From a virus: a stretch of 64,000 nucleotides of DNA. Positions 602 through 58,437 of this stretch are shown here, piece after piece. The notes beneath the pieces are model-generated. The model was not told the origin of the DNA and made no database searches. It saw only the letters and a list, made by a program, of their open reading frames with translations. Within the stretch, counting starts at the first letter, position 1. Each line of letters opens with the position of its first letter. The DNA lies in IMG/VR virus record IMGVR_UViG_3300037010_001749, positions 21,896-85,895 of that record. One strand, given 5' to 3'. The position numbers and the translations under genes were made by a program.

Positions 602-948
602 AGTGCGGCTTGCTCCATGAAGATATTTCCTTTGGCTAGGTTAGCCGCCATCGGCAGCACTCGCAAGTTGTAGTGAACGTGCAGGCCGCAGACCAGATCG
701 CCTTTGAGCGGGATGATGTGATCCACGCTGTGTAGCGTGCCTGTCTCTTTGGTGAGACGCTTAGCGTCTCTGTAGAGCCTACGGATCAGGGCTTTATCGG
801 CCCAAGGCGGTGTCGCCATCTTCACCTTCAGCCGGTAGACTTTTCCGCGGAAGTTCCCTCGGCTGATGCGCAGTGGGCACCCAGGCCTGAATAACGGTCC
901 TGGGTGCTGTCCATCAAGCTGCAGCGATAGCTGTTCTGCTCTTGGCAC
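316..948 (-). CDS. HNH endonuclease (start and C-terminal extension uncertain)
   Basis: ATPPWAD...HSVDHIIPLKGDLVCGLHVHYNLRVL...N..KGN. Confidence 0.85.
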   Translation of the reverse strand: MPRAEQLSLQLDGQHPGPLFRPGCPLRISRGNFRGKVYRLKVKMATPPWADKALIRRLYRDAKRLTKETGTLHSVDHIIPLKGDLVCGLHVHYNLRVLPMAANLAKGNIFMEQAALWPTSTAAADAEHATPSSTPCSGTGENASAGTAVMTAFTSILSVSIAYLAGVPGPTSGGHTERAQPSVTSTLKARPTEQFEPGKTKAQLPGWACD

Positions 949-10951: not shown

Positions 10952-12385
10952 CTAGCGGCCGTGGATCGCATCACGCAGATCTTTGAAGCCACCTTGAACT
11001 TTGTTCGCAAGGGCGTCGTTGTGCAGCAGGTTCTGGTGGAGCCTTACCTGGATGGTGTCTTGAGCGATCGCTAGCCGGATGTTGGGCACATAGAGTTGCC
11101 CATCACGGGCCACTCGGCCCACACCTTGAACGAACGGCCAAGGAACCACGGGTTCCTCAATCCACAGAACTTCCTTGCACACGTGCTGAGGGTTCCAGCC
11201 TGCCCCACCGGACCCCGGCTGGGCGATGATGGCCCGGCATTTCGGGTCGTCGAGAAAGCGGGCGATGTTACGCGCCTGCTGCGCTCCTGACACCTCTGAG
11301 TAGCAGGCTACCGTGTCGTACTTGGCCATGAACTTCGTCACAGCGCGGCTCGTCATGATGTAGTAGGTGAAGATGATGAGCTTGCTAGCTGCGGGGTTGA
11401 GCAAGTCGATCTCGTCAGCAACTGCCTCGATCAGGTCGAAGACCGCTGGCACGCACTTCTCGTCTCCGCTGAAGTGTGACCAGTTGCAGATGATCTGCTG
11501 CGACGCGTTGTACAGACGGCCGGCTGACGTGGCGTCGATCTTGCCACCGTCCGGGAGCAACAGAAGCTGCTCGTCGACCAGCTGGTTGTATAGGCCCAGG
11601 TGCTCCGGAGCCAGGTCGTAGTGGATCGGGATGTAGTTTGGCTGCTTGAGATCCTTCAGCACATCGCCGCTCAGCCGGCGTGACGCCTGCAGCATCAGGT
11701 TGCTCTGCATCATCTCCAGGTTCTGCCACTCCTTGACGTTGCCGAAGAAGTCACGATCTGCCACGTGCAGGTTCTCAAAATGCGCCTGGCTTCGGTACAC
11801 GCTCGGGGTCTTCAGCTTCACGTAGCCGTAGGCGTCACCAGGTGACGAGATGGGAGTGCCTGTCAAGACCTGCAGCTTCTCACCCTCAGAGAACTCCTTC
11901 ACAGCCTTGTAGTTGGCCGTGCCTACGTTCTTGACCGAGTGGCCCTCGTCCACCGTGAGGTTTTTGCTACGCCCTTGAAGCTGGCGTTGGATGTGAGGCA
12001 AGTCGCTCTTGAACATCTGGATCGACGTGAGGATCCACTTGTACGCCTGCAGGTTGATCGCCTGCCGCTTCACAGGTGCGCCGCGGTAGGCCACGACCGC
12101 ACCGACGTCGTGCAGCGACTCGAGCCAGCGCTTCCACTGAGGCACCAGGATAGGAGGCATCAGGACGATGTTGTGGGCACAGTCCCAGGCCAGGCTCAGG
12201 ACTGTGCTCGTGGCGGTCTTGCCTGTGCCCACCTCGTTGAACAGGCCGACGCGGTCGAACGGGTAAAGCTCCTCCACGTCTTCGACCTGGTCAGCGCGGA
12301 GTTCGAAAGGGATCTGGTGGTACTTGAGCAGATCTCCGAGGTTGTCAAAGTCAGGCACGCTTCGGCACCTTGGGTAGTGTGGCAA
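10952..12385 (-). CDS. SNF2-family helicase
   Basis: EVGTGKT, VDEGH, LTGTP, QGVGRVARDGQ. Confidence 0.9.
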   Translation of the reverse strand: MPHYPRCRSVPDFDNLGDLLKYHQIPFELRADQVEDVEELYPFDRVGLFNEVGTGKTATSTVLSLAWDCAHNIVLMPPILVPQWKRWLESLHDVGAVVAYRGAPVKRQAINLQAYKWILTSIQMFKSDLPHIQRQLQGRSKNLTVDEGHSVKNVGTANYKAVKEFSEGEKLQVLTGTPISSPGDAYGYVKLKTPSVYRSQAHFENLHVADRDFFGNVKEWQNLEMMQSNLMLQASRRLSGDVLKDLKQPNYIPIHYDLAPEHLGLYNQLVDEQLLLLPDGGKIDATSAGRLYNASQQIICNWSHFSGDEKCVPAVFDLIEAVADEIDLLNPAASKLIIFTYYIMTSRAVTKFMAKYDTVACYSEVSGAQQARNIARFLDDPKCRAIIAQPGSGGAGWNPQHVCKEVLWIEEPVVPWPFVQGVGRVARDGQLYVPNIRLAIAQDTIQVRLHQNLLHNDALANKVQGGFKDLRDAIHGR

Positions 12386-19836: not shown

Positions 19837-20586
19837 CTACTCCTTAGCCCTAGAGAAAAGCCTGGGCGCCGCAAACTTGCGCGCCTTCCGCCCGTGGACT
19901 GTGATGACCACTGAGGCCCTATTGCTTCGGCCGTCGGCCGTGCCGTTGCATGCACCGCACGCGATGCACGTGAGGCGCTTGCCCGCCTCTTCGCTGGCCG
20001 GGCAGACCATCTCACGCACTCCGGCCCCAGCCTTGGGCGTGCGCACACGGAAGTAACGCAGCCCCAGAGTCTGGGCCAGCGTAGCTTCAGCATCGCTGTC
20101 GACGCTGGCCATGCAGAGTTCGGTGACACCTTGCCACTGCTCCAGGGGCAAGTCTCTGTTCTGCCACTGGTGCGTGTAGCCTGTGTGGCCTGCGGCCTTG
20201 GACACCAGGGCCTGCCAGACCCTGGCAGGCACAGCCATCGGGTCCCCATAGGAGCCCAGGCGGACCATTCGGCCCTCACCCAGCACCGAGGGGTCTTCGT
20301 GCAGAGGGTAGCCGCCGCGGCGCCACTTCTTGTAGACCACGGCAGGCCCACGGTCTACCAGCACATAGCAGGCACCGCCGCGGCTGGGGCGCCAGGCACA
20401 CTCTCCGCACACAGAGACATCTGCGCCCGAGGCTACAGCCTCAGCCGGGTGCATGTCCTGGCGCAGGATGTATGTCTGCACCATGTTGCCTGTCTTCACG
20501 TTGGCGCTCGCCTTCAGGGCAATGGCCATGATGGGCGCCGCGTCAAGCAGCGACGCCCCTTGCCAGATGACGTGGCCCGTCGTCAT
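19837..20586 (-). CDS. Conserved Cys-rich phage protein (GP88-like, possible Fe-S protein)
   Basis: N.KTG.MVQT.I, CGEC...CYV, RLGSYGDP, TGYTHQW, SVDS, CPA...C..C..C. Confidence 0.7.
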   Translation of the reverse strand: MTTGHVIWQGASLLDAAPIMAIALKASANVKTGNMVQTYILRQDMHPAEAVASGADVSVCGECAWRPSRGGACYVLVDRGPAVVYKKWRRGGYPLHEDPSVLGEGRMVRLGSYGDPMAVPARVWQALVSKAAGHTGYTHQWQNRDLPLEQWQGVTELCMASVDSDAEATLAQTLGLRYFRVRTPKAGAGVREMVCPASEEAGKRLTCIACGACNGTADGRSNRASVVITVHGRKARKFAAPRLFSRAKE

Positions 20587-21167
20587 GTGGGTTCGTCGGC
20601 GAGCCAGCTTCGCGGCACGCAGTAGCATGCAACCATACCGCCTATAGTCGGCATCTCTTCGCCTTCCAAGTAGAAACCCCCATCGAGGTCAGCCGCCCCG
20701 GGCACGTAGGGACTGCAGGCCCTGTTGGCATGACCGGCTGGCCCGGCGAACACCCACAGCAGCGGCGCACCACCCAACCAGTCAATCCGATAGTTGACGC
20801 CGTCATAGACGCCTTCGATGATCGGCTCGCTGATATCGATGTTGTCTCGCCGGCGCTCGACGTGTTCCTCGACAAAGGCATCCTTGTCCGGCTCCTGATT
20901 CTTGAACCCGAACCAGTTTTGCTGGAAGATCTCGGAGTCGAAGCCCACCTCTCGGTCAGCGCCGCTCTCAGCGGCGCTAATGCAGCACTCCTCCGTCAAG
21001 GCTTCGTATTCGCCCTCGGCCTCGGCCACCAGTTCAGTGACGGCCGCCTCGTAGCTGACGTCCTTGGCGTGCTGGCCATAGAACAGGTCATCCAGGCACC
21101 AGGGCTGTAACGAGTTGAAAGAGATCACGCCGTAGGCGAGACCAGTGGTGGGGTTGTAGTCGGGCAT
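20583..21167 (-). CDS. Acidic hypothetical protein
   Basis: TAAGGAG RBS; CSPYVPGAADLD motif. Confidence 0.75.
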   Translation of the reverse strand: MPDYNPTTGLAYGVISFNSLQPWCLDDLFYGQHAKDVSYEAAVTELVAEAEGEYEALTEECCISAAESGADREVGFDSEIFQQNWFGFKNQEPDKDAFVEEHVERRRDNIDISEPIIEGVYDGVNYRIDWLGGAPLLWVFAGPAGHANRACSPYVPGAADLDGGFYLEGEEMPTIGGMVACYCVPRSWLADEPT

Positions 21168-21314
21168 CGTTGCTCCTTAGGGCTAGGTACGCTCACACCT
21201 CAAGCCACCACGCGGCCCGAGGCTGAGAAGAAATATGTCAAGCAAAACTTGTCATCTTCGAGCCGCGCAACCGCCGGATGTGCAGCCACTCGCCGTCTGT
21301 GAGACTGCGTAGCT

Positions 21315-21521
21315 TCACAGCGTCACCCGCTCAGCCAGCGCCTGGCTGATCTCACCATTCCGGGACAAGCTGTCGACGTAGTCCGAGAAGGCGCAGCGTG
21401 TGTCGGTCACGTGCATGGTGCCGTTGCCGCTGTAGTCGGGGGTCTTTTTGCGCTCCGCGTCGGGGTGCGCTTCCCAAAAGGCAGCGCGAACCTCACGCTG
21501 CGCGGTGTAGGTAGGCTTCAC
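21315..21521 (-). CDS. Conserved small phage protein
   Basis: VR.AFW...DTRCAF.DYVDSL.R.G.IS..LA..VTL. Confidence 0.7.
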   Translation of the reverse strand: MKPTYTAQREVRAAFWEAHPDAERKKTPDYSGNGTMHVTDTRCAFSDYVDSLSRNGEISQALAERVTL

Positions 21522-21603
21522 AGCGGGTAGCCCACCCGCTTCACGACCTTGCAGTTCACCACCTCGACCGTGTCTCCGACACGGATGACACCCTCCCGCC
21601 GGC

Positions 21604-21822
21604 TCATACCAGGTTCAAGGTAGTGACCCACCAACTGTTGCAAGCCAGGTAGGCGTCGTAATCCTGGTAGAGATCCTTGGTGCCTTCGTAGTGGCTCACG
21701 CGGAGCCGGTACAGCTGCCGCTCCGCGTGGAGGTTTGCGTTACCGTGGTCCACCAGCACAGCCGCGACGCACTCGCTGTTGTTCTTGATGACGATGACCT
21801 GTGTAGCTGCGTTGGGGCTCAT
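21604..21822 (-). CDS. Hypothetical protein
   Basis: ATGA coupling. Confidence 0.55.
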   Translation of the reverse strand: MSPNAATQVIVIKNNSECVAAVLVDHGNANLHAERQLYRLRVSHYEGTKDLYQDYDAYLACNSWWVTTLNLV

Positions 21823-22115
21823 GCTTCGAACCCCGCCTGGAAGCCGAAGTAGGCGATGTCCACGTGGCCACGGCTGCAGAAGACCATGTCGAAGTCGCAG
21901 GGATTGACGAGGCCTTCGATGTACCCCTGCGCCTTCCGGTCTTCGCGCCAGGCTTTGGCCACTTCAGCCCGCGCCTTCTTCAGTGCAGCCAAGGCCTCGG
22001 TGTAGTTGTCGCCAGCCGGCACAGACACCAGTGCCACATGGAAGGGCCAGGCGTGCACCCAGTCGGGCGGGAACCTGTAGTGGAGCACCACCGTCCAGGG
22101 CTTGCTGGCCCTCAC
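21819..22115 (-). CDS. Hypothetical protein
   Basis: GTGA coupling. Confidence 0.55.
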   Translation of the reverse strand: MRASKPWTVVLHYRFPPDWVHAWPFHVALVSVPAGDNYTEALAALKKARAEVAKAWREDRKAQGYIEGLVNPCDFDMVFCSRGHVDIAYFGFQAGFEA

Positions 22116-22305
22116 GACAGCGTCTCCGACTTAGCCTCTTCACCCAGGGCGCGCAACGTGGTGGCCAGCAAGGTACTGGCACGGATCGGGCTCATGCCCG
22201 AGGCGATGAGCAGGCGCTTCGCGTCCTGCATGGCCTGCAGCCCCTGTAGATTGGTCTGGCGCACGGCACTGCTGAAGGTGCGGATGATTTCGTGTTCGAT
22301 ATCGT

Positions 22306-22542
22306 TCAAACGTCTTCCTTAGGGTTGGGGAAAGGCTTGCGCTCCAAGGGGAACGAGGCTAGTCGGATCTGGCCCATGCCCTTGCGAATGTAAATATGCT
22401 GGCGGTGATCAAAACGAAAGGCCAGCATGTCACTGGCCAGGTTGGCCTTCAGGATCGCCAAGTCTTCGGTGTGATAGAACGCCCATCGGGCGGCCTTGAT
22501 GGCGCGGCCAAGGTCGCGCCAGGTCTAGCGCAGCGGGGTCAC
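22306..22542 (-). pseudogene. Small ORF with an in-frame TAG at codon 6
   Basis: Coupled GTG start, TAG at 22525-22527, frame open afterwards to TGA at 22306. Confidence 0.45.
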
Positions 22543-22700
22543 CCCACCACCGCCATGTCGCGCTCGCAAGTATTGAACTCCAGCCCGTGCTCCACGGCTA
22601 GGTCTTCGGCCTTCTGCAGAGCATCCTGCTCCGACTCGGCTTCGATTTCCACCATCGTGGCGTACGTCTCCGTGACGGCCACTTTGTACATTTTGGTCAT
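22539..22700 (-). CDS. Small acidic protein, 53 aa
   Basis: MTKMYKVAVTETYATMVEIEAESEQDALQKA. Confidence 0.6.
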   Translation of the reverse strand: MTKMYKVAVTETYATMVEIEAESEQDALQKAEDLAVEHGLEFNTCERDMAVVG

Positions 22701-22715
22701 GCTATTGTCTCTAGA

Positions 22716-22733
22716 TTAGCTCGAACGTTATGC
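22716..22733 (+). other. Truncated attC (L'/R' half), left edge of the array
   Basis: TTAGCTCGAAC GTTATGC; 22716-22737 is identical to 25019-25040. Confidence 0.8.
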
Positions 22734-22849
22734 GCCTGTCTCGGAATGGGTGAGCTTCACCGCATGCCAAGTGCCTAAAACCTCGTCTGCCGCCGTCAGC
22801 CAGTCTTGCGGCAGCGGGTGCGCTTCAGCAGGGCCAGCGCAGCGGCACC

Positions 22850-23563
22850 CTACTCCACCGGGTTCACTGCGCTTCGCGCAATCTCAATGAGCAAGTCTCG
22901 GAACTCAGGCGGTGTACCGTTGCGGATCGCAGTCTTATCCTTGCCGCCCACCATCGCCATCATTCCAATGCGCCGCGCTTTCGCGTATCCGGGCAACTCC
23001 ACGGCGCGCGGGTGTAGCCGCTGCGGTGTCTTGCCCCAGCGCAGTTCGGGCAGCAGGCGCTTTTGCACGCCAGCCACAAGCAGCCATGTTCCTTTGCCGG
23101 CAAGGTGCCCGTAGTGGCCTTGGTACACGCAGCACGTCCACAAGCCTGGCGCGGCCTCAACCCACCCACCTTTGCGCGGCGGCTTCTTCAGCCTGAAGTA
23201 CGCCCACGCATGCGAGTCCATCGGGTGTTCAAGCACGCCACCGTTCAGACGCAGCGCCGCCAGTGCGGTAGCAAAACACCCATCGTCGGCGCCCAGCTTG
23301 TACTGGTGCGGCTTGCGCGTGCTGCCGTGCCAGAACCTGCCCCAGCGCTGGCAGGGCAGGTGCGCCACTACCGGGTGCGGGCCTGCATAGGTACGGGCAT
23401 CGCGGGCTTGGTCCCACGGGTCAACGCCCGGCACGCCTACATAGCAGCCCTTCGGCTCAACGTAGAGGGCCGCCACCGTACGGAAGCTCTCCACCTGGCG
23501 CATAACCCCTCGCACAAGCTGAGAGCCAACGGCGGGTGTAATGGGTGCTTCAGGTTTGGTCAT
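22850..23563 (-). CDS. Cassette ORF: divergent C5 DNA methyltransferase-like protein
   Basis: VAALYV..., VVAHLPCQRWG (PC motif), VLEHP; start codon inside attC. Confidence 0.55.
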   Translation of the reverse strand: MTKPEAPITPAVGSQLVRGVMRQVESFRTVAALYVEPKGCYVGVPGVDPWDQARDARTYAGPHPVVAHLPCQRWGRFWHGSTRKPHQYKLGADDGCFATALAALRLNGGVLEHPMDSHAWAYFRLKKPPRKGGWVEAAPGLWTCCVYQGHYGHLAGKGTWLLVAGVQKRLLPELRWGKTPQRLHPRAVELPGYAKARRIGMMAMVGGKDKTAIRNGTPPEFRDLLIEIARSAVNPVE

Positions 23564-23596
23564 GCCGTTGGTTCCAGCTTTGCTTGGTCATTAGGC
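23500..23596 (+). other. attC type A (97 bp), R' core mutated GTT>ATT
   Basis: GCATAAC CCCTC GCACAAGC...GCTTTGC TTGGTC ATTAGGC. Confidence 0.85.
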
Positions 23597-23784
23597 GGCT
23601 TGCGCAACTCGAACATCACAACCCGCCGCAGACCCAGGCGCCGCAGGTAGTCGGCGCTCGGGTTCACCTTCTCGCCATCACGCAGCCGCGACAGGTAGCC
23701 GCAGTCAATCTCGGTCACGCGGGCCACGGCGCGCAGGCTGCCGTGCTGCGAGACGAGTTGGTCAATGCGCTCTGCCAGCGTCAT
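23560..23784 (-). CDS. Cassette ORF: XRE-like HTH protein
   Basis: GSLRAVARVTEIDCGYLSRLRDGEKVNPS. Confidence 0.8.
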   Translation of the reverse strand: MTLAERIDQLVSQHGSLRAVARVTEIDCGYLSRLRDGEKVNPSADYLRRLGLRRVVMFELRKPPNDQAKLEPTA

Positions 23785-24125
23785 GACTGATACCCGGCCA
23801 GCGCGTTGGCTAGCGCGGCATCCGCTTCGCCGAGAAAATCGTCCGGCACAATGAACGACACCCACGCGGGAGCGTTCGGCGTTGCTGGATGCCTCGCGTA
23901 TTGCAAGAGCGTCGCAAGCAGCACGGCACAGCGCTTCGGCGCAGCCCGCACCAGCACTGCAAACCGCTCCAGGTGCTCCTGCGTCACGCCGTGGCAGCCT
24001 TCGCTGTACACGCACGAACCGCTGCCGTGGTTCAGCACGTTCACCATTCCAGCAGCCTCCACCAGCGGGCCTAACCCCTCTGTCGAGCCGAGTGCCAACG
24101 GCTGGCTGGTTTTGGTAGTGTTCAT
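23781..24125 (-). CDS. Cassette ORF: hypothetical protein
   Basis: AAGGAG RBS and ATG lie in the attC loop. Confidence 0.75.
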   Translation of the reverse strand: MNTTKTSQPLALGSTEGLGPLVEAAGMVNVLNHGSGSCVYSEGCHGVTQEHLERFAVLVRAAPKRCAVLLATLLQYARHPATPNAPAWVSFIVPDDFLGEADAALANALAGYQS

Positions 24126-24173
24126 CGTTGCTTCTCCTTGGCCGTTGTCACCGGCTCAACTCCAACGTTAGGC
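24069..24173 (+). other. attC type B (105 bp)
   Basis: GCCTAAC CCCTC TGTCGAGC...GCTCAAC TCCAAC GTTAGGC. Confidence 0.9.
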
Positions 24174-24174
24174 C

Positions 24175-24468
24175 TCACACCAGCCACGATGCAGCGGCAG
24201 CTTGGCGAGAGGCTGTGTCGCGTGCCTTGATGCCCGCCAACAAGTCGGCGGCCAGCAGCGGGTATTCGGCGGCGCACGATTCTACGTATGCGCGCAGGGC
24301 CGCCGCAGCGTGCTTATCATGCGTCAGGTCCAGCACAAAGTAAACGCAGCCGCAGTGCTTGCCGCCCGGCGCGCTACTGCCGTCCGTTCGCGTCACGTTG
24401 AATCTGCTGTACAGCCCACGATTCCTGTCACAGGGCATTGGCTCGCCGCACAGTTCACACTTGCTCAT
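24175..24468 (-). CDS. Cassette ORF: conserved phage protein (alternative GTG start at 24549 within attC)
   Basis: GLY..F.V.RTDG....GGKH..C.YFVLDL.HD.HA..AL.AY. Confidence 0.8.
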   Translation of the reverse strand: MSKCELCGEPMPCDRNRGLYSRFNVTRTDGSSAPGGKHCGCVYFVLDLTHDKHAAAALRAYVESCAAEYPLLAADLLAGIKARDTASRQAAAASWLV

Positions 24469-24491
24469 GCTTTTCCTCGCTCCGGCACCAG

Positions 24492-24592
24492 GCCGAACCA
24501 TTCGCACAAGCTGCGCCCCAACGGCGGGGCACAGCAACTCGGTAGGCACCGCCTGCGCGGCCGTTGGTGCCAGCTTTCCTCAATCGTTAGCC
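24492..24592 (+). other. attC (101 bp)
   Basis: GCCGAAC CATTC GCACAAGC...GCTTTCC TCAATC GTTAGCC. Confidence 0.88.
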
Positions 24593-24605
24593 AGCGCCAA
24601 AACCA

Positions 24606-24926
24606 TCACGCCGGCTCGTAGGTGGCTGCGAAGATGTCCGGTTTGCATGGATAGTGCTCGCCGGCCACGCCGCGAATGATCCAGTCGCCTGGGCTAGCGA
24701 CATGCTGGCCTTCAAGCGTCGGAACCATGATGTTGTTGTTGTGCCATTGCGCCAGCTCGCGCCCGATGGCGTGCTGTCCCTCGTTGATCCAGAGAATCAG
24801 CGCATAGCTACTTCCGTCGTTGCGGAACTGGCGTGCTTCAATCACGATAGGTTTCTTCCTGAAGCGCGTTGTCTGTTCGGTTGTTGCCGCGTCCAGCTCA
24901 TGGCCGGCGCTGAGAAATGTTTGCAT
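24606..24926 (-). CDS. Cassette ORF: PGDYG-like conserved phage protein
   Basis: FRKKP.VIEA.QF...TLEG...ASPGDWIIRGV.GE.YPCKPDIF..TYE. Confidence 0.85.
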   Translation of the reverse strand: MQTFLSAGHELDAATTEQTTRFRKKPIVIEARQFRNDGSSYALILWINEGQHAIGRELAQWHNNNIMVPTLEGQHVASPGDWIIRGVAGEHYPCKPDIFAATYEPA

Positions 24927-24966
24927 GACGGTTCCTTCTGTGTTGTGCCAGCATGGGTCGGGCGCT

Positions 24967-25036
24967 GGCTAACCCCTCGCTCAAGCGGATTTGCCACGGA
25001 GTACCATGTCAAACGCGCTTAGCTCGAACGTTATGC
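24967..25036 (+). other. attC type C (70 bp)
   Basis: GGCTAAC CCCTC GCTCAAGC...GCTTAGC TCGAAC GTTATGC; canonical extra base in L''. Confidence 0.93.
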
Positions 25037-25635
25037 GCCTTGAGGCACGCCACCATTTGCCGCGCCGACTGTCTCGCGTCCATCAACGGGTGGTGCGCCG
25101 GTAGTTCGTCCGGCAAGCGCTCGGTCAGTTCCAGCGCGTTGCCGCCCAGCGCCAGGATCACGCTTGCCAAGTCGTGCAGCGGGTACGGGCCTTGCCACTC
25201 GCGCTCGGCGTGGTTCAGCTTCACGCACGCGCTCAGAAAGTTGGCTTCCACCGGCCAAGCGCAGTCAGCCACCAGCACCGCGCCCTGGTCGGCCCAGCTT
25301 CGCCACTCATGCCAAAAGTGGTTCCGCAGGTGCTGCTTCGTTGGGCTTGTCACCGGCAGCGCCGGCACATGCTCGCCCACCCACAGCCGGCTTTCGGCGG
25401 TGCCGGTGCAGTCGGCGGGGTCGCAAGCAATGCAGCCTTCGTCCAGCCGCTCGCCTTCTCGGTTCACCACTACCCAGGCCACTGCAAAGCCCTCGCCATG
25501 CAGGCCAATGCTTTCCACGTCAAACACCATAAATTTGTCCATCACCATCCTCTCGTTTCTCGCTGCAGGCGCCGTAACACCTCGCACAAGCTGAGAGCCA
25601 ACGGCGGGTGTAGTGGGTGCTTCAGGTTTGGTCAT
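25009..25635 (-). CDS. Cassette ORF: DEDD 3'-5' exonuclease-like protein
   Basis: VFDVESIG...HHPLMDARQS; starts and stops inside attC sites. Confidence 0.75.
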   Translation of the reverse strand: MTKPEAPTTPAVGSQLVRGVTAPAARNERMVMDKFMVFDVESIGLHGEGFAVAWVVVNREGERLDEGCIACDPADCTGTAESRLWVGEHVPALPVTSPTKQHLRNHFWHEWRSWADQGAVLVADCAWPVEANFLSACVKLNHAEREWQGPYPLHDLASVILALGGNALELTERLPDELPAHHPLMDARQSARQMVACLKAHNVRAKRV

Positions 25636-25668
25636 GCCGTTGGCTCCAGCTTTGCTCGATCGTTAGGC
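25572..25668 (+). other. attC type A (97 bp)
   Basis: Near-identical to 23500-23596; ends GTTAGGC. Confidence 0.9.
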
Positions 25669-25968
25669 GCTTACCGCAGGGCCAGCAGGCAGCGGCATCC
25701 AGTGCGTCACACGTCTCACCAGCGCTGGCGGCAGCGGCCAGTTGTGCTGGTCCACCTCCCACCGAGGGCCCTCACCAGTAAGCCGGAACTTCGTGATGTG
25801 CGCGTGTCCAGGAGTCAGCCGGTCAAAGACCCCGCGGCGCCACACCAGCACGGTGGCGTTGTGACTGGGCAAGCGCTCGCCAGTCGGCACCCACGCGCAT
25901 AACCCCTCACTGCAACCGAGCCCCAACGGCTGGCCCGTGCTGCTGTCATCGGTAGTTTCAGTGGTCAT
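25663..25968 (-). CDS. Cassette ORF: DUF551-like protein
   Basis: W.P..ERLP...VLV...VTHWMPLP..P. Confidence 0.85.
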   Translation of the reverse strand: MTTETTDDSSTGQPLGLGCSEGLCAWVPTGERLPSHNATVLVWRRGVFDRLTPGHAHITKFRLTGEGPRWEVDQHNWPLPPALVRRVTHWMPLPAGPAVSA

Positions 25969-26016
25969 CGTGTTTCCTCTCGTGCCGTTGTGTCCGGCTC
26001 ACCTCGAACGTTAGGG
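25897..26016 (+). other. attC (120 bp)
   Basis: GCATAAC CCCTC ACTGCAAC...GCTCACC TCGAAC GTTAGGG. Confidence 0.85.
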
Positions 26017-26184
26017 CGCAGGGCCACGCTTGCGGTTCTCGCGGCGCTGCAACTTCGCTTCCAGCGCCCTGACCTCTGGCACGTACTCCGGGCGCACATG
26101 CACTGTCACCGCAGTGCGCCCGGATTCCTTGTGGCGCTGCCGCTCGTCGGCCTTGCGCTCTGCTGCTGTTTTCGCTGGGCTCAT
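26011..26184 (-). CDS. Cassette ORF: 57-aa basic protein, possible DNA-binding or antitoxin-like
   Basis: MSPAKTAAERKADERQRHKESGRTAVTVHVRPE...; ATGA-coupled; stop is the TAA in the R' site. Confidence 0.7.
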   Translation of the reverse strand: MSPAKTAAERKADERQRHKESGRTAVTVHVRPEYVPEVRALEAKLQRRENRKRGPAP

Positions 26185-26423
26185 GCCAGCGTGGCGCCGG
26201 CCGCTAGGTAGTGCGCCAGCTCGCTGTCCGGGATCGAAACGAACCTGTAGCCCATGCGGTGCGCAGTGGAGCCATCAGGAATGGTCACAACGCTGAACGG
26301 CTCACCCTTCATTTCGGCAATCTGCTTTGCGTAGGCACGCACTGGCTCGGCCTGCGAGTGGATCGGTTCCACTTGCAGGGCTGCGCGCTGGCGCTTCAGT
26401 GTCTTGGTCATCTCAGCTTGCAT
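26181..26423 (-). CDS. Cassette ORF: hypothetical protein
   Basis: AAGGAG RBS downstream of the cassette promoter. Confidence 0.7.
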   Translation of the reverse strand: MQAEMTKTLKRQRAALQVEPIHSQAEPVRAYAKQIAEMKGEPFSVVTIPDGSTAHRMGYRFVSIPDSELAHYLAAGATLA

Positions 26424-26462
26424 CTCTTGCTCCTTCTGCTGCACTGTAGCCGCAGTGGCTAC

Positions 26463-26491
26463 AGTATCGCTCATCGTGACACGTCACGCAA
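26463..26491 (-). promoter_or_regulatory. Sigma70-like promoter with overlapping palindromic operator inside a cassette
   Basis: TTGCGT-17bp-GATACT; CGTGAC-GT-GTCACG dyad overlaps the -35 and spacer. Confidence 0.7.
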
Positions 26492-26506
26492 GCATTCTCG
26501 CGTGCG

Positions 26507-26612
26507 CCCTAACCCCTCGTTGCAACCGAGCCCCAACAGGCTGCGGTCAGTTGTGGCCTTTCGGCCTGCTTATGCACGGCCTGTTGGGGCCGGCTGAACT
26601 CGAACGTTAGGC
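26507..26612 (+). other. attC type D (106 bp)
   Basis: CCCTAAC CCCTC GTTGCAAC...GCTGAAC TCGAAC GTTAGGC. Confidence 0.92.
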
Positions 26613-26911
26613 CCTTCAATGCCGCGAGCAATCTTGCTGGCGGCATTCCGCGCGTTCACCGTCACGCCGTCAGCGTGCGTCTCGCCCCAGCGGCGGGCAA
26701 TGGCGGCGCAGCGTGCGCGCTCGGCGGCCACGGCCTTGTCAATGCGCCACTGCACATGCGCCGGGCTTGACCAATGGCCGCACTCGGCGGGGTCATCGTT
26801 TGTGCCGCAGATTGTCATGGTCAGGTATTGGCCCTCGCGCTGCGGTGGCAGCGGGCCTAACCCCTCTGTCGAGCCGAGTGCCAACGGCTGGCTGGTTTTG
26901 GTAGTGTTCAT
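26570..26911 (-). CDS. Cassette ORF: hypothetical phage protein
   Basis: AVAAERARCAAIA motif; starts and stops in attC sites. Confidence 0.75.
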   Translation of the reverse strand: MNTTKTSQPLALGSTEGLGPLPPQREGQYLTMTICGTNDDPAECGHWSSPAHVQWRIDKAVAAERARCAAIARRWGETHADGVTVNARNAASKIARGIEGPNVRVQPAPTGRA

Positions 26912-26959
26912 CGTTGCTTCTCCTTGGCCGTTGTCACCGGCTCACATCGATCGTTCGGT
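26855..26959 (+). other. attC type B (105 bp)
   Basis: Near-identical to 24069-24173; ends GTTCGGT. Confidence 0.88.
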
Positions 26960-26966
26960 GTGTTGC

Positions 26967-27197
26967 TCACCGCGAGCAACCCAAATGCTTGCCGTCGCTC
27001 GTCATGCGTGGCGTGAGTCCGCCGGCCGAAGTGCGCAGATACTGGCACCCGGTCAGCGCGTCGGTGCTGGGCACCAAGCCGCTGCGGGCGCCCCACGCGC
27101 CGGGGTCCGTGTCATCGCGCCCAATGGGCAGCAGGCCCACAACCAGCATCATGGCCACGCCAATCAGCAGGTACTTCCCGCACCAGCGGGCGAACAT
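26967..27197 (-). CDS. Cassette ORF: membrane-anchored DUF6440-like protein
   Basis: TM helix then D.TD...RSGL...TD.LTGCQYL....GGLTPR...DG. Confidence 0.75.
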   Translation of the reverse strand: MFARWCGKYLLIGVAMMLVVGLLPIGRDDTDPGAWGARSGLVPSTDALTGCQYLRTSAGGLTPRMTSDGKHLGCSR

Positions 27198-27218
27198 TTT
27201 TGCTTCTATCAACGACAC

Positions 27219-27324
27219 GCCTAACCCCTCGTTGCAACCGAGCCCCAACAGGCTGCGGTCAGTTGTGGCCTTTCGGCCTGCTTATGCACGGCCTGTTGGG
27301 GCCGGCTGAACTCGAACGTTCGGC
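27219..27324 (+). other. attC type D (106 bp)
   Basis: Near-identical to 26507-26612; ends GTTCGGC. Confidence 0.9.
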
Positions 27325-27325
27325 A

Positions 27326-27628
27326 TCAATACCGGCTTTCGAGTTTCGCCAGCGCCGCTTTGATGATCGACTGCATCACCTCATCGGTCATGTGCTTGGC
27401 CATTGCGTCCTTGATGCCGGTTTCCAGCAGCGGCGCGTAGGTGGCCAGCACTTCCTTTTCGATCAGTTCGCGCACGTACCGCTTGACGACATCATCGAAT
27501 GGGTTGTTGTAGCTCTTGGACAGTTCAGCGATGCTGCGCTGAACGGCACCCTTCACTACTTCACCGATCTGGCTGTCCATCACAGTCTTGGCGATGAACT
27601 CGTTAATTTGCTGCGGGGTCAGTTCCAT
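27326..27628 (-). CDS. Cassette ORF: helical hypothetical protein
   Basis: AAGGA RBS; fills its cassette. Confidence 0.8.
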   Translation of the reverse strand: MELTPQQINEFIAKTVMDSQIGEVVKGAVQRSIAELSKSYNNPFDDVVKRYVRELIEKEVLATYAPLLETGIKDAMAKHMTDEVMQSIIKAALAKLESRY

Positions 27629-27651
27629 GTCGTTTCCTTCTGTGCGTTGAT

Positions 27652-27756
27652 GCCGAACTGGCAGTTCAAGCAGAGCCCCAACGGCGGCCTGCTTTTGTGG
27701 TTAAAAACTCCGGCGTCCGTGGCGCCGTTGGTACCTGCTTAACCTAAACGTCAGCC
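27652..27756 (+). other. attC (105 bp), R' core GTT>GTC
   Basis: GCCGAAC TGGCA GTTCAAGC...GCTTAAC CTAAAC GTCAGCC. Confidence 0.88.
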
Positions 27757-27792
27757 GGCACCAATACCCTCGGTGCCGGCATACTCGTGTTG

Positions 27793-28071
27793 TCAGAACG
27801 TGGTGGGCTGCGCAATGCCGCGAATCAACTTCATGAAGCCCACTTGCAGGTCAGTGGCTCCCATGCTGACCCACCGCTGGTCAAGGTCCAGTGACAGCGG
27901 CCTGCCATCGGCCACAGGCGTATCGGTGCGCGTGATGTCAGGGTGTTGACGCAGTTTCGCCACAAAAGCGCCGCACTGCTCGGCCAGCGCCTTGCCCTCG
28001 TTCATCAGCGCTACTTCAGCACCGCTCAGTTGACGGTAGCCCGTCACTTTCGGTTGAATCATCGTTTCCAT
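27793..28071 (-). CDS. acb2: Cassette ORF: Acb2-family anti-CBASS cyclic oligonucleotide sponge
   Basis: KVTGYRQLS..E..LMN..K and RW..MG.TDLQ.G.M..IR.IAQP..F match the Acb2 termini; 92 aa. Confidence 0.88.
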   Translation of the reverse strand: METMIQPKVTGYRQLSGAEVALMNEGKALAEQCGAFVAKLRQHPDITRTDTPVADGRPLSLDLDQRWVSMGATDLQVGFMKLIRGIAQPTTF

Positions 28072-28111
28072 GTGGTTCCTTAAGTTGCATGCCAGCGTTG
28101 GTGCGGGTGCT

Positions 28112-28181
28112 GGCTAACCCATCGCTCAAGCGGATTTGCCACGGAGTACCAAGTCAAACGCGCTTAGCTTGAACGTTCGGT
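28112..28181 (+). other. attC type C (70 bp)
   Basis: Near-identical to 24967-25036; ends GTTCGGT. Confidence 0.92.
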
Positions 28182-28415
28182 CCGTTCATTCGCCACCGCC
28201 ACTGCATCAAGCACACCCGGCTTCATCGCCAGTTCCAGCAGGCTGCCCATCATGCGCTTGCCGTGCGCCCGGTTGGCATCCAGTAGATCGATGTACTTCT
28301 TGCGATACTGGTGAAGTTCTTCGTTTTCCTCGCGCAGCCGCTCTAGTTCGTGATGCATGTCCAGCACGTCGGCGGCCATCTGCACAGCCAGGGGCACTTT
28401 GTAGTCTCGCCTCAT
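28164..28415 (-). CDS. Cassette ORF: coiled-coil hypothetical protein
   Basis: GGAG RBS; stop inside attC. Confidence 0.75.
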   Translation of the reverse strand: MRRDYKVPLAVQMAADVLDMHHELERLREENEELHQYRKKYIDLLDANRAHGKRMMGSLLELAMKPGVLDAVAVANERTERSS

Positions 28416-28434
28416 CTCGTTTCTCCACCAACGG

Positions 28435-28470
28435 GCCTAACCCGTCGCTCAAGTTGAGAGCCAACGGCGC
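28435..28470 (+). other. Truncated attC (R''/L'' half), right edge of the array
   Basis: GCCTAAC CCGTC GCTCAAGT TGAGAGCCAACGGC; no right arm. Confidence 0.8.
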
Positions 28471-28482
28471 CAGCAGGCACCG

Positions 28483-29394
28483 TCATGCCGCCTCCTTAGC
28501 CTTGAGGAGGCCCAGTTGGTGGGCGATACCTTCGATCTCATCGAAGGCGATGTCATGGCAGCCGACCACGATATTGCCGTTGGTGCAGATCTTCGTCAAC
28601 TCGTAGTGACCCAAGGTCATGCCTACCTCGTAGTCCTTCTTGCCCTTCATGACGCGCTGGATGACCGGCCAGAGCTTCTTCGCGTCTTCGACGGGGATGC
28701 TGGCGTGGCGGCTGGTCTGGATCATGAACGACGGCAAGTCCAGCCGCAGCATCGTCGGAAGATCCCGGCTGAGCGCTGGGCTCCCACTCCGCCGCCAGGC
28801 TGTAATGGCGACGGCCTGCAGCCTCCGAAAGGCCTTGGCCTGCGACACTGCGCGGCGTTTCTCCGAGACGGCTTTCTTGGCCAGGTGCTCGCGGTGCTGC
28901 TCCGGGCTCCACGTCGCCGCATCGATCGGCTTGATACGGGCCTTGTGCTTCAGCAGCTTCGCAAACTGGTTGAAGTCGGCGGTGATCTGCGCCGCTTGGC
29001 TGAGGTAGACAGGCCGATTGCCGTCGGCCTTGGCGCGTAGGGCCTTGGCCAGCAGGTTGTCGACGAGGGCCTGAGTGCCTTCCGTGTCCGGCGCGTCGTG
29101 CTCCGGGTTCAGCACGGACACCTGCTTCAGGTGCCTGGTGGCGTGTCGTGCCTCCCAGACGTGCCTGTTTGTCGTGGAAGAATTCTTCTCCAGGTTGATG
29201 GCCACCCAGCCGCCGGGTAAGTGGCGACCGATGCAGTAGTGCTTGCCGTAGCTGTAGAAGTAGTCGCCTTCGACGAAGGCCTGGATGACGCGGCCGCCGT
29301 TCATGCCGGGACGCTCGGGCATCCGAGCTTCAGCCTGCCGTTTGTGGGCCCAGATGTGGGCCAGTTCTTCCGAGTGGTTGTACACCGTCTTCAT
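28483..29394 (-). CDS. Conserved phage early protein, 303 aa
   Basis: AH.WA...YSYG.HY.I...S.TT..H; GCH.I...EI. Confidence 0.8.
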   Translation of the reverse strand: MKTVYNHSEELAHIWAHKRQAEARMPERPGMNGGRVIQAFVEGDYFYSYGKHYCIGRHLPGGWVAINLEKNSSTTNRHVWEARHATRHLKQVSVLNPEHDAPDTEGTQALVDNLLAKALRAKADGNRPVYLSQAAQITADFNQFAKLLKHKARIKPIDAATWSPEQHREHLAKKAVSEKRRAVSQAKAFRRLQAVAITAWRRSGSPALSRDLPTMLRLDLPSFMIQTSRHASIPVEDAKKLWPVIQRVMKGKKDYEVGMTLGHYELTKICTNGNIVVGCHDIAFDEIEGIAHQLGLLKAKEAA

Positions 29395-29645
29395 GCGATG
29401 AGTCCTCGTTGTCTTGCGTACTCGACCAGATGGGGTTGCCACTCAGCTTCGCTGTTGGCTGACCGACTATTGAAGCCGGCGAGGCGTGGAGCGGTCAGGT
29501 AACCCGACTCGATCTCCTCGTTGATGGCCTCGACATCAAGGCTGAAAATCTCGCGCCCCCTCGGGGTGCTGAGGCTGGCGTATCCGTCGCCTCGTTCAAA
29601 CCACACGCTGGCCACGTACTCGTGGTCAGCGATCTTCTTTGCCAT
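29391..29645 (-). CDS. Hypothetical protein
   Basis: TAAGGAG RBS. Confidence 0.7.
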   Translation of the reverse strand: MAKKIADHEYVASVWFERGDGYASLSTPRGREIFSLDVEAINEEIESGYLTAPRLAGFNSRSANSEAEWQPHLVEYARQRGLIA

Positions 29646-29709
29646 GGCGGCTCCTTAGGGCTAGAGAACCCGGCCGATGCGGTCCTGGCCTTTGATCTTG
29701 ATGGCCATG

Positions 29710-29985
29710 TCAGTACAGGTTCTCGCTGTACAGCGTCCCATCGTTGGCATCGTCGCCACCGCAGCGGCGGACGATCTGGCCTGCCGCTTCGGCAACCTTC
29801 CAGGCCACCGTCCGAGACATGAACACACCGTGCTGGTCGATGAAGCCCTGCTCCTCTTTCGGGTCATGCGGAGTGAAGGCCTGCACGAGTCGCCACTGGT
29901 CGCGCATCACCAGGTCCCAGTGCCGGGCGCCGACCAGCATGTGGTAGTCGCCGATCTTGGTGGCCGCGCAAACGACGCGTCTCAT
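29710..29985 (-). CDS. Conserved small phage protein
   Basis: G.RH.D...EQGFIDQ.G.F.SR..A..VA..AGQ...LYSENLY. Confidence 0.8.
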   Translation of the reverse strand: MRRVVCAATKIGDYHMLVGARHWDLVMRDQWRLVQAFTPHDPKEEQGFIDQHGVFMSRTVAWKVAEAAGQIVRRCGGDDANDGTLYSENLY

Positions 29986-32900
29986 CGCACACCTGACAGG
30001 TTCTCGTACTCTTCGACGCCCATGATGACGCACTCGATGACAGCCAGGCCGTCTCGAAGCCACATCGGGCACTCGCGCTTGGCCTGCTGCCCGTCTTCCT
30101 CCGTCAGGTGGAACTGGTTCGCACCCTTCTCGAAGCCCAGCGGCTTGCCGGCGCGATCCTTCTGCATGGCCACCCACACTTGAGTCGGCGCCGTCACTTC
30201 AGCACACCTGCAATCTTGGCGTACTTCTCGAGCAGTTCCGGGAACGCATCTTCGATGCGCCGGATGCTGTCGTCGTCAGCCACGAGGTAGGCCTCGGCCA
30301 ACTTGGCGGCGAACCCTCCGCCGTAGGCTCGCATCACCCGGATGATGTCCAGGCGGTCGTTCAGTTCGTAGTGCATGACGCCTCCTTAGCGCTGAGGAGC
30401 CAAGGTATAGAAGCGGACCGCCGCATCGCGGCGCCAGGCATCCAGCAGTTCACCGTCAGCGCCGGGATACTTCTGGACCTTGTCGCCCACCCAGGCCCGC
30501 TGCAGGTTCTCCTTCAGACGTTCCGCCTGAACTGGGTCAGCAAAGCGCGACACCGTGAGCAACTCGTTGGGCGGGTCGCACACGACGGTGTACAGCGTCG
30601 GGTGGTAGAGCGGCGGGATACCCGCCTTCTGCTGATGCCACGTGCTCAAGCTCGATCCTCCTTAGCGTTGAGGGCGTTGGCGATAACCTGGGCCTGCCCC
30701 ATGCCGGAGCACTCGCAGACGACCTGGTTTCCGTACCAGTCGTCGCCTGCCTCTCGTGCGTACGGCGGCGGGTCGATGTTCGTGTCCACCACTGAGGCAT
30801 CAAAGCAGCAGGCATGGCCGAGGATGCTGCGCTCCACAGCCTTGTACCGCGGCGTCATGTCACCTCCCGCAAGGTGGCCTTGTCGCGCAAGTCAGCACGC
30901 CACTGCTCGGCCCAGCTGGTCAAGTCTGGGATGTGCTCACGGACAAGCTCGCACACCATGTCCGCGAAGTAGCCTGCGGCGCAGCGCTGCCAGAACTCAT
31001 CGGCGTTGCCGTAGCAACACGCGCCCAGGCTTTCCTCGCCCAGCATCTCGCCACGGTGCCATAGGCTCACGTCGGCGTTGAACCAGGCGAAGTCCTCGAT
31101 CTCGCGGTACTGCTGCGGCGTCCACCCGCACTCCTTCACGAAATGCCGGTGCATGCTGACCGACTCTTCCGGAGGAGCATCGAAGCAAATCATGTAGTCG
31201 GTGCCAGGGATCACAAGCACTGGTTTCATTTCTGCCTTTCAGCGAGGCCAGAGGCTGCGGCGGCTTCCGCATGCTCCAGCGAACCCAGGTAGCTGCGGCC
31301 TTCAATGGCGCGCAGTTCGGTCAGGCGGTCGCCCAACTCCTTAGCCCTGAGGAATTCGTCCCCGGCCAGCCGGCTGCCCAGCGCCTTCAGGATCAGCAGT
31401 GTGTCGAACTTGTTGAGTTCGAAGATCCAGTTGGGCTTGAGGTGCAGTTGCGGCTTGTCGATTCGTTCACCGTTCATCGGCTATCCCTCATCTTGTCCAC
31501 GTTGAAGCGCTTGATCCAGCGCTCGATGATCGTGTCGCACACGCCCAGGCCATCCAGCAGCCCATCGAGGTCTTCCGCACGCAGGCATAGGCTGACGTGC
31601 CCGTAACTCTCGTGGCTTTCGATACCCCGCTCCGGATCACCCTTGAACGCCTCGTCGAGCATGTCAATCAGCTGAGTGACGTAGTAGCCACCTGGCTGCT
31701 GATTGCGCTCTTCGGCGTCACGCAGCACAAACTCCAGCCGGTGCCCATGCCAGGTCTTGACGTTGAGCCAGCCGTCGACGTGGGTCAGCTCAGCATAGAT
31801 GTCGTCGTCGTCGCTCACAGCTTCTCCGCCACCAAGCCAGCGAGCATCGTGCGCATGGCCTGGGTGTAGCCCATCAGGTAGAGATCGCCGTTCTCCTTAG
31901 CGTTGAGTATGATGTTGTCCAGGCCCTGGAACATCGATTCGATGCGGTAGTCATCGACTAGCCGGTTGCGCCGTCGGCGGTCAGGCCGCTCGATCCCTTG
32001 ATTGTCGGTGTAGTAGTCCATGTCAGGTCTCCACGATTCGTGCGTCCCAGCCGTAGGCGATACTCTCGCCTCCCTTGGACAGCATGTTGAACATCTGCTT
32101 GATGTCATCGAGCACGTCATTTGGGTCACGCAGCATCTCGCCTTCCTCGGACGGGAGAAGCGTGACCATGATGTGCACGGGCTTCGCCCGCGGCTCGCCA
32201 TCATCGGGGCCATCGGCCCCGGCACGCTCGAAAGGCTCGTGGCTGTCGCAGCCGTCGTCGTACTCTTCAGGGAGCATCAGCTTTCCTCGGGTGCAGCGTA
32301 GAGCTGCTCAACGACAAGGTCCTGGGGCCGGGCCAGCGGCGGTTGGGTGTAACGCCAATGTTGCGACTCATCGGAGTTCTTCCAGAACCAGCGCGTGCCT
32401 GCGTAATACGTCAAGGGGCTCGCCTGAAAGGCGGCCTGCAGCATTGCTCCATAACCATCTTCTTCAACCGCCTCCATGGCGTCGAGCATCGCTCGTGTCG
32501 CCACGGTGGGCACCAGCTTCCAGTGGGTCACAGGTCCACCTCGCGCCCATCGGGCATGATCAGCGTGGTCTCGGTGCTGATACCGAGCACCGCGTCGAGG
32601 ATCTTGAGGCTGTAGCTGGGCAGGGCCGGCGCCACGAGATTTTCGAGCGTCTCGTGCAGGGTTTCCACGTGGTCGTCCTGGTTGGGGTCGAAGTCGTCGG
32701 GCACTTCGACCTCGAACGTCTCGCGCTCCCAGACGGCCTGGTCGCGTTGGATTCGGATCTTCATTCAATGCCTCCAAACAAAGCCGTCTTCGGTGAGGAA
32801 GCCGCCGCCGATGCCACGTTCGGTGTAGGCGCCTTGCAGGGCGTACTCGAGGACGTCAAGCTGGGTGAGTCTCACCGCCCGGCTCCTTCGCGTCCTGGTA

Positions 32901-58435: not shown

Positions 58436-58437
58436 CC

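Follow-up and report, generated by a model that had tools for sequence, protein, structure and literature searches.

Integrons are viewed as bacterial devices. Their recombination sites, attC, follow the consensus RYYYAAC ... GTTRRRY on the top strand and form an imperfect dyad, in which, once the bottom strand has folded, the L'' and L' boxes pair, the central spacer stays unpaired and the L'' arm carries an extra-helical base. Crossover takes place at G|TT, and the last six bases of R' thereby become the first bases of the next cassette. Genes antisense to attC occur in the chromosomal integrons of Vibrio, where reverse-oriented toxin-antitoxin cassettes, each with its own promoter, form a minority within a sense-oriented array. 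Phages, for their part, swap small, variable, non-essential early genes between unrelated phages, as seen in their moron regions. Here, we describe an array of attC sites that carries phage genes, all of them antisense to the sites, in the genome of an uncultured phage (IMG/VR virus record IMGVR_UViG_3300037010_001749; 85,895 bases). The analysed stretch, referred to as the window, comprises 64,000 nucleotides (bases 21896-85895 of the record), and the coordinates given below are those of the window unless another contig or genome is named.

The closest described systems are the attC clusters found in a screen of 10,705 NCBI phage genomes (Qi et al., 2023; PMC9892861). The text of that study reports integron components in 21 phages, with 17 attC clusters that have no integrase (CALINs) and contain at least two attC sites, as well as recombination of five phage attC sites with attI1 under the integron integrase IntI1. 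It gives the core as G|TTRRRY, regards cassettes "oriented in the same direction" as the usual arrangement in bacteria, mentions methyltransferases among the phage cargo, which suggests counter-defence, and presents phages as vehicles for, and occasional carriers of, bacterial cassettes. The array described here resembles those CALINs in being an integrase-less attC cluster in a phage genome, recognisable by integron criteria. Unlike them, it comprises 11 sites and two half-sites, all of its genes are antisense to attC, and its phage cargo is absent from the sampled bacterial arrays; moreover, dozens of uncultured viral contigs are built in the same way, and some of them have an integron integrase (IntI) of their own. 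The abstract and section 3.4 of PMC9892861 contain no discussion of genes antisense to attC; its figures and supplements may hold the polarities of the open reading frames (ORFs). In full-text literature searches, Qi et al. (2023) was the one study obtained on integrons in phages, and no account appeared of phage cargo in cassette arrays antisense to attC, or of IntI located distally in an operon of a phage. Clusters of attC sites in phages are therefore already known, while reversed arrays with phage cargo were not found in the literature searched.

The attC sites of the array

The region 22692-28470 contains 11 complete attC sites (a1-a11) and two half-sites, bounding 12 cassettes with 14 ORFs. 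Judging from sequence comparisons, it is very probably a genuine CALIN, whose units would be moved by IntI acting in trans through attC x attC recombination. All 11 sites carry their top strand on the plus strand. The initial annotation, made from the letters alone, had listed the same 11 sites, each of which was recovered at its position, and had counted two half-sites; the integron geometry that it described was also confirmed. The R'' box ends with AAC in all 11 sites and in the right half-site, and R' begins with GTT in nine of the 11 and in the left half-site (the exceptions being ATT in a1 and GTC in a10). In an alignment of the 11 sites as bottom strands, the AAC/GTT core is paired and is separated from the L helix by spacers of 6 nt (R' side) and 5 nt (R'' side), within which RNAalifold suggests three weak G-U pairs. 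The L helix consists of 18 pairs and is 96.6% paired, with compensatory changes at eight pairs. Its covariation score is 0.258, as against 0.118 in shuffles (none of 500 scored as high), and sliding one arm, which served as a control, lowers the pairing to 27-44%. A bulged base stands on the L'' arm (alignment column 107) and is a bottom-strand G in eight of the 11 sites. The paired L boxes, the 6- and 5-nt spacers and the bulged base together correspond to the imperfect dyad of attC. The outer four pairs of the R boxes are paired in place at only 55-64%, as would be the case if the outer portion of every R' were part of the cassette that follows. The sites are 70-120 nt long, their loop columns show no conservation, and when folded singly, five of the 11 have z-scores of -2.7 or lower.

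A covariance model (R1) was built from the 11 phage sites alone, which fit it by construction, and it gave no further match elsewhere in the window at E-values up to 1. Searching the whole 85,895-base record with nhmmer yielded 13 matches, every one within the array; the 13th, recovered with the --max option, is the left half-site, whose RRRY is complementary to R'' of a1 at all four positions. No match to Rfam 15 was obtained in the whole window at gathering thresholds (whether Rfam has an attC model was not established), and a blastn search of cultured phages with attC a2 gave none either. A geometry scan with regular expressions was dropped and replaced by the models, as it recovered six of the 11 sites together with three weak chance matches elsewhere.

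Relationship to bacterial integrons

A degenerate motif derived from the left arms was scanned over a collection of species-representative genomes and matched at least 120 bacterial loci. Most of those listed belong to Betaproteobacteria (Rubrivivax, Aquabacterium, Hydrogenophaga, Leptothrix and other Burkholderiales), and many contain 5-10 copies of the motif, about 600 nt apart. A search for IntI in likely hosts had been proposed in the initial annotation, and the enzyme is encoded in all five motif-bearing genomes that were checked (423-468 bits; NCBIfam TIGR02249, cut-off 265). In the metagenome-assembled genome G001, R1 detects 150 or more sites; intI is on the minus strand there, and every site lies to its right and on that strand too. 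In the complete chromosome of Rubrivivax sp. RP6-9 (G004) it finds about 100, most of them on the strand of intI (plus) in a stretch that reaches to 1.1 kb from the gene, with smaller clusters elsewhere in the chromosome. The R1 scores of bacterial sites are 68-83 bits, and in arrays abutting a bacterial intI the R1 sites are always on the intI strand. As the strand detected by R1 is the intI strand, that is, the attC bottom strand, the top strand of the sites in the window is the plus strand. On this sequence evidence the array repeats are true integron attC sites, sharing one sequence and structure family with those of the large chromosomal integrons of these bacteria. In Rubrivivax sp. RP6-9, seven or more further sites of this family were noted together at G004:C1:1278238-1285251, 3.8 Mb from the main integron and on the opposite strand.

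With the sedentary chromosomal integrons of Burkholderiales (Rubrivivax sp. RP6-9 and G001), the array shares (i) the motif TAACCCCTC on the R'' side, (ii) the stem CCAACGGC, (iii) units of one or two ORFs and (iv) the relation between the bottom strand and the intI strand. These integrons differ from the array in having at least 100 cassettes beside intI, a cassette GC content of 0.47-0.64 and ORFs mostly on the attC top strand (the longest ORF in 41 of 48 cassettes, by a model-free count), and no proteins common with the phage cassettes were found in the 120 loci.

Reversed polarity of the cassettes

All 14 array ORFs are on the minus strand and none is on the attC top strand, so the classical polarity of cassettes is absent. 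This strand assignment, given already in the initial annotation together with the agreement in direction with the early operon, is confirmed by homology (DUF551, Acb2 and four PHROG families) and supported by a codon model trained on ten long genes of the phage itself, which placed 12 of the 12 genes it called in the array on the attC bottom strand. Because the genes lie on that strand, they would be transcribed with the phage operon and not from the integron promoter Pc.

The same orientation was found in other viral DNA. The left-arm motif matches 35 loci from IMG/VR viral contigs, in which R1 gives 181 matches, some of them opposite-strand echoes. In the 22 of these loci with at least three nhmmer sites, the codon model placed 85 of 85 called genes on the attC bottom strand; the set contains near-duplicates (L001/L005/L035 and L003/L008/L019/L034), so the number of independent arrays is below 22. 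The strand calls are supported by matches of the 80 ORFs of the other viral arrays to 11 Pfam and 36 PHROG families, and the cargo of these arrays includes several DNA methyltransferases, DUF551, DUF5131, DUF1643 and an HNH endonuclease. Reversed polarity is thus systematic in viral arrays. The reversed toxin-antitoxin cassettes of Vibrio are comparable in that a gene antisense to attC needs its own or outside expression signals, whereas here the whole array, like all 85 genes of the 22 viral loci, is antisense and read by the phage operon.

For bacterial arrays, the polarity given above rests on the cruder longest-ORF count, because the phage codon model mis-calls bacterial intI; its bacterial tally (149 top vs. 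23 bottom) and an upstream control (10 vs. 13) were discounted for that reason. Conversely, the longest-ORF count was dropped for viral DNA, being noisy in GC-rich phage sequences (6 vs. 6 in the array itself and 57 vs. 38 in the viral loci).

Cassette ends and cassettes shared between viral arrays

If crossover occurs at G|TT, complementarity is expected between a cassette's own two ends and not between the arms of a single site. The four variable bases of R'' fully complement RRRY at the far end of the same cassette in seven of the 12 cassettes, compared with one of 11 for the arms of the same site. Permutation of the partners gave p = 0.0012 for the sum and p = 0.0017 for perfect matches, and among shifts from -4 to +4, shift 0 alone stands out.

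Several whole cassettes recur in viral contigs that are unrelated in other respects, and their DNA matches stop at attC sites. The protein of cassette 5 is 88% identical in viral contig L004, and the DNA is 86% identical across 25018-25667. Near-perfect identity begins with GTTATGC of the preceding R', and similarity ceases at the cassette's own R'; to the left of cassette 5 the attC bodies of the two arrays are of different types, and the adjoining cassettes differ. Breakpoints at the R' core, where the initial annotation had anticipated them, are seen in the L004 comparison. The protein of cassette 9 is 87.5% identical in L028, with a DNA match spanning 26926-27328, and the cassette 1 protein has copies at 63-64% identity in six other viral arrays. 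Of the 80 ORFs from other viral arrays, 25 are present in more than one viral locus. No match was found between the 125 called proteins of the phage and the 120 bacterial loci fetched, and the 80 ORFs gave a single 40-residue match to these loci, which is probably attC-coded. In this sample, the phage and bacterial cassette pools look separate. As in moron regions and mosaic early operons, the exchanged genes are small, variable and accessory, but the exchange is bounded here by a defined site-specific recombination site instead of short, arbitrary patches of homology.

Public sequencing runs were analysed as Logan contigs, whose assembly stops at each attC repeat. In run X3, one contig joins GTT of a6 (26012) to a diverged cassette 9 (26976), skipping cassettes 7 and 8. 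Eight of the nine listed read joints were set aside: their sides span about 18-31 letters with a likeness of 90%, and they may derive from other arrays in the same metagenomes.

Integron integrases in viral genomes

The array has the composition of a CALIN, with 11 attC sites in one orientation and no intI found in the record, as the initial annotation had noted for the part it saw. A complete integron, with intI, an attI next to it and a Pc promoter that reads the cassettes in sense, is not represented: besides the lack of intI, the genes are antisense to attC and the left end is an attC-derived half-site without the attI-like motif described below, in agreement with the earlier statement that no attI is visible. 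Of the 34 viral records in which this attC family occurs, three have a gene for IntI (395-427 bits, in one full-length stretch). They derive from temperate phages, with a tail fibre, a primase-helicase, ParB and a separate phage integrase beside IntI, and phage genes flank the array and intI on both sides. Each of the three has its attC sites upstream of intI, on the intI strand, and the genes between run toward intI, which occupies the promoter-distal end of the array. Two of them (L168, 2530-2591; L170, 7694-7745) share the motif GCGAATTGAWGTTAG in the 55-60 nt between the start of intI and the first cassette, an interval that also holds two GTT cores. The RRRY of this junction is complementary to R'' of the first cassette in both, which makes the junction a candidate attI; in L168 and L170 the final cassette ORF reads across it toward intI.

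The three viral IntIs are about 50% identical to bacterial IntI and 53-82% identical to one another. At least 92 viral contigs encode relatives of IntI (38-100% identity to the phage IntI query), of which 80 were fetched (L175-L254) and 77 searched with R1. The 52 matches, spread over 21 loci, were all on the intI strand and upstream of the gene. Upstream sequence was sufficient in 50 GC-rich loci; of the 326 genes within 5 kb upstream in these, 298 are directed toward intI, and at least 80% of the genes in this interval are so directed in 46 of the 50. The strand of intI, used as an internal control, was called correctly in 47 of these 50 loci, and a model-free tally gave 233 vs. 113. This layout is the opposite of the divergent one of bacterial integrons. 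Among the four viral records with this attC family that are at least 90% complete, one has IntI; complete phages relying on an outside integrase thus exist.

The array as part of the phage genome

The record is linear, with a completeness of 71% according to CheckV, and is identified as a phage by PHROG profile matches to replication, packaging and head genes. The carrier is a large phage of at least 86 kb, and its host is probably a Rubrivivax-like member of Burkholderiales. The array sits within a long leftward early operon, all genes called by the codon model at 20583-30649 being on the minus strand. Its GC content (0.626) is similar to that of the flanks (0.615 and 0.626), and its codon usage matches the phage. 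The junctions of the array with phage genes are crossed by contigs in four public runs, one of which (X4) comes from an independent study and spans both junctions, and the depth of the public-run contigs is even over array and flanks. The array is native to the phage. A megablast search of cultured phages with 20000-32000 gave no match, and the flanking gene for a 319-aa protein has no relative in the viral contigs searched.

Origin and mobility of the array

In the CALIN reading, each unit is a cassette in the strict sense, running from TT of one R' core to G of the next, and attC x attC recombination at G|TT would lead to gain, loss and reordering of units. IntI could come from the chromosomal integron of the host or from a temperate phage that carries intI and resides in the same cell. 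The early phage transcript would pass R', the L' arm, the loop, the L'' arm and R'' of each attC and enter the gene, with no use of a Pc promoter. Catalysis by IntI in trans, present-day activity of the array and a role of the cargo in counter-defence are what we infer from the sites, the end signature, the shared cassettes and the phage integrons with IntI. Several observations weigh on the other side. In five of the 12 cassettes the ends are not perfectly complementary; a1 and a10 have mutated R' cores (ATT and GTC); folding of a6 and a11 is no better than that of shuffles, and that of a1, a3 and a4 is only weakly better. Both array ends are truncated half-sites, which IntI does not make, and neither IntI (TIGR02249) nor any candidate tyrosine recombinase was found in the 85,895-base record, itself 71% complete. 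As for polarity, the longest-ORF count is evenly split (6 vs. 6) on the array itself, and in the five bacterial control loci (L255-L259) the phage codon model calls an antisense ORF across intI in four and nothing in the fifth. The alternative junction of run X3 is one low-depth contig (depth 3.7, with a side of 30 and 19 diverged letters between), and the near-identical attC pairs a7/a9 and a2/a8 leave the cassette order between them insecure in short-read assemblies. Given the half-sites and the mutated cores, some units may be fixed, and other recombination has acted as well. The gene-shuffling platform served by the IntI of a host or of a distant phage, as proposed in the initial annotation, is thus upheld by the site family, the shared cassettes, the end complementarity and the available IntI sources, every comparative test run from that annotation having had a favourable outcome, with the reservation that part of the array may be frozen.

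The main rival is an array that is frozen in part and is altered by homologous recombination as well. In its full form, an array once assembled by an integrase would now be an inert fossil, altered by homologous or illegitimate recombination between phages at the attC repeats of about 100 nt. We regard this as unlikely, although it would account for the half-sites cut within attC at both ends, for the mutated R' cores of a1 and a10, for the lack of an integrase in the record and for the 53-aa ORF (22539-22700), which is joined to a decayed a5-type site at the ATG of its loop, and near-identical attC pairs would favour homologous exchange. It fits poorly with the retention of GTT in nine of 11 R' boxes and of AAC in all R'' boxes, with helices that keep compensated pairs and with the significant complementarity of cassette ends. 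In L004, identity starts at GTT with different attC bodies to the left, while homologous exchange within the repeats would break elsewhere, and integrase sources exist both in hosts and in other phages. Another explanation, to which we give very little credence, is that the repeats are phage regulatory hairpins (modules for translation coupling or attenuation in the early mRNA) that only resemble attC and are unrelated to integrons. Several ORFs do start within a loop after a Shine-Dalgarno-like sequence, a stop and a start overlap as ATGA in the a1 loop, and every site is transcribed in one direction. Yet a model made from these sites alone finds hundreds of attC sites beside bacterial intI, its matches in the IntI-encoding viral contigs are without exception upstream of intI and on its strand, TAACCCCTC is common to bacterial sites and so not phage-specific, and conserved protein domains begin past the attC-coded residues. 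Hairpins as the sole explanation are contradicted by the intI-linked bacterial and viral sites; a regulatory side-role of the attC repeats may exist. It is extremely improbable, finally, that a bacterial integron fragment was misjoined into a phage contig: the record does come from short-read metagenomic data, and the assembly graph is broken by repeats of about 105 nt, but contigs from four runs, those of the independent study included, cross both junctions into phage genes, and the depth is even. GC content and codon usage match the phage, the cargo is of phage type and co-oriented with the operon, and none of the cassette proteins has a match in the 120 bacterial array loci.

Beyond the single locus, the array looks like part of a widespread use of integrons on the phage side, and it suggests that phages employ integron recombination for their own accessory genes. 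We see an even chance that phages of GC-rich Betaproteobacteria run an integron economy of their own, with a backwards pool of accessory and counter-defence genes kept apart from the bacterial pool. Such cassettes would be read from the phage early promoter. A phage IntI and attI would lie at the promoter-distal end of the array, beside the phage's own integrase, and the host IntI would serve phages such as the present one; the reversal would place the recombinogenic bottom strand as the non-template strand of a heavily transcribed operon. If phages do use integron recombination for their own genes, part of phage mosaicism would have a site-specific mechanism, and the reversed polarity would make the creation of cassettes, as well as attC folding coupled to transcription or replication, directly testable. 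The arrays would also form a catalogue of candidate counter-defence genes, each cassette being small and independently selected, with Acb2 as one of them. Bacterial integron cassettes have been reported to encode anti-phage defence (2024-25 preprint 10.1101/2024.07.02.601686; see also the preprint 10.1101/2024.07.02.601719), and phage arrays might then be the counter-defence mirror of bacterial chromosomal integrons that bank such systems.

Cassette genes

The features of the array and the main backbone genes of the window are listed in Table 1.

Table 1. Predicted attC sites, cassette ORFs and selected phage genes (window coordinates; bit scores of complete attC sites are those of the covariance model).
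Feature	Position	Strand	Evidence and properties
DNA polymerase	914-4345	-	PHROG profile
Primase	7983-10937	-	PHROG profile
Helicase	10952-12385	-	PHROG profile
Left half-site	22692-22733	+	Loop, L', 6-nt spacer, R' (GTTATGC); R''-L'' half absent; 82% identity to right half of a5
Cassette 1 ORF, 237 aa	22850-23563	-	phrog_12600, E 1e-60, residues 28-232
attC a1	23500-23596	+	91.3 bits; R' degenerate (ATTAGGC); 90% identity to a5
Cassette 2 first ORF, 75 aa	23560-23787	-	No match in Pfam, PHROG, NCBIfam
Cassette 2 second ORF, 114 aa	23781-24125	-	Start in a2 loop; no match in Pfam, PHROG
attC a2	24069-24173	+	104.4 bits; fold z -4.09; 95% identity to a8
Cassette 3 ORF, 124 aa	24175-24549	-	phrog_9572, E 4e-20
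attC a3	24492-24592	+	81.3 bits; singleton
Cassette 4 ORF, 106 aa	24606-24926	-	phrog_419, E 1e-29, and six further PHROGs; no match in Pfam, NCBIfam
attC a4	24967-25036	+	48.6 bits; short type, 70 nt; 92% identity to a11
Cassette 5 ORF, 208 aa as listed	25009-25635	-	No match in Pfam, NCBIfam, PDB sequence search
attC a5	25572-25668	+	91.9 bits
Cassette 6 ORF, 101 aa, DUF551	25663-25968	-	Pfam PF04448, 33.2 bits (cut-off 22), residues 26-97
attC a6	25897-26016	+	78.8 bits; singleton; fold z +0.63, not significant
Cassette 7 first ORF, 57 aa	26011-26184	-	Weak match to phrog_536, transcriptional regulator
Cassette 7 second ORF, 97 aa	26181-26474	-	ORF call
attC a7	26507-26612	+	93.5 bits; fold z -4.24; 99% identity to a9 as far as GTT
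Cassette 8 ORF, 113 aa	26570-26911	-	57% match across 65 aa in viral contig L029
attC a8	26855-26959	+	105.6 bits
Cassette 9 ORF, 93 aa	26967-27248	-	phrog_14094, E 4.5e-12
attC a9	27219-27324	+	95.1 bits; fold z -3.32
Cassette 10 ORF, 100 aa	27326-27628	-	Codon score 50.5; no family above cut-off
attC a10	27652-27756	+	81.7 bits; singleton; R' degenerate (GTCAGCC)
Cassette 11 ORF, 92 aa, Acb2/Tad1-type cyclic-nucleotide sponge family	27793-28071	-	Pfam PF24729, 47.1 bits (cut-off 27)
attC a11	28112-28181	+	43.9 bits; short type; fold z -0.29
Cassette 12 ORF, 83 aa	28164-28415	-	No family match
Right half-site	28435-28470	+	R'' (GCCTAAC), spacer, L'' arm only; 70-75% identity to other left arms; 20.4 bits, E 0.003
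Large terminase	46537-48297	+	PHROG profile
Portal	48755-50266	+	PHROG profile
Head protease	58291-59253	+	PHROG profile

Of the cargo labels proposed in the initial annotation, DUF551 and Acb2, a family of anti-CBASS sponges, were borne out, those of a helix-turn-helix (HTH) protein for the 75-aa ORF and of PGDYG for the 106-aa ORF found no confirmation in Pfam or NCBIfam, and DUF6440 stayed below the cut-off. The DEDD exonuclease label was not supported, as the 208-aa protein of cassette 5 has no match in these two databases or in PDB; the true start of this protein likely lies after attC. The cassette 1 protein has homologues in 13 cultured-phage records, with matches starting at residues 2-30 (the best from residue 30). 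Conserved domains in general start past the attC-coded residues (residue 28 for PHROG, 26 for DUF551 and 18-30 for the best cultured-phage homologues), for which reason the attC-coded leaders may be absent from the mature proteins.

Several smaller features of the array ORFs were also noted. On the minus strand, the loops of a2 and a8 (24125-24141 and 26911-26927) contain AAGGAG, 7 nt and ATG, in frame with the unrelated 114- and 113-aa ORFs, and at a1 (23560-23563) the 75-aa ORF ends and the 237-aa ORF begins within one ATGA. Just outside the array, the DpnD/PcfM-like 53-aa ORF has as its start codon the ATG in the loop of the truncated left attC, and its first three codons are common to the loop ORFs of a1 and a5; a deletion probably cut the left attC and joined a new gene to its start codon. 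Cassettes 10 and 11 (27319-28175; the 100-aa ORF and Acb2) have GC contents of 0.55 and 0.59, compared with 0.63-0.66 in most others, and may be later arrivals.

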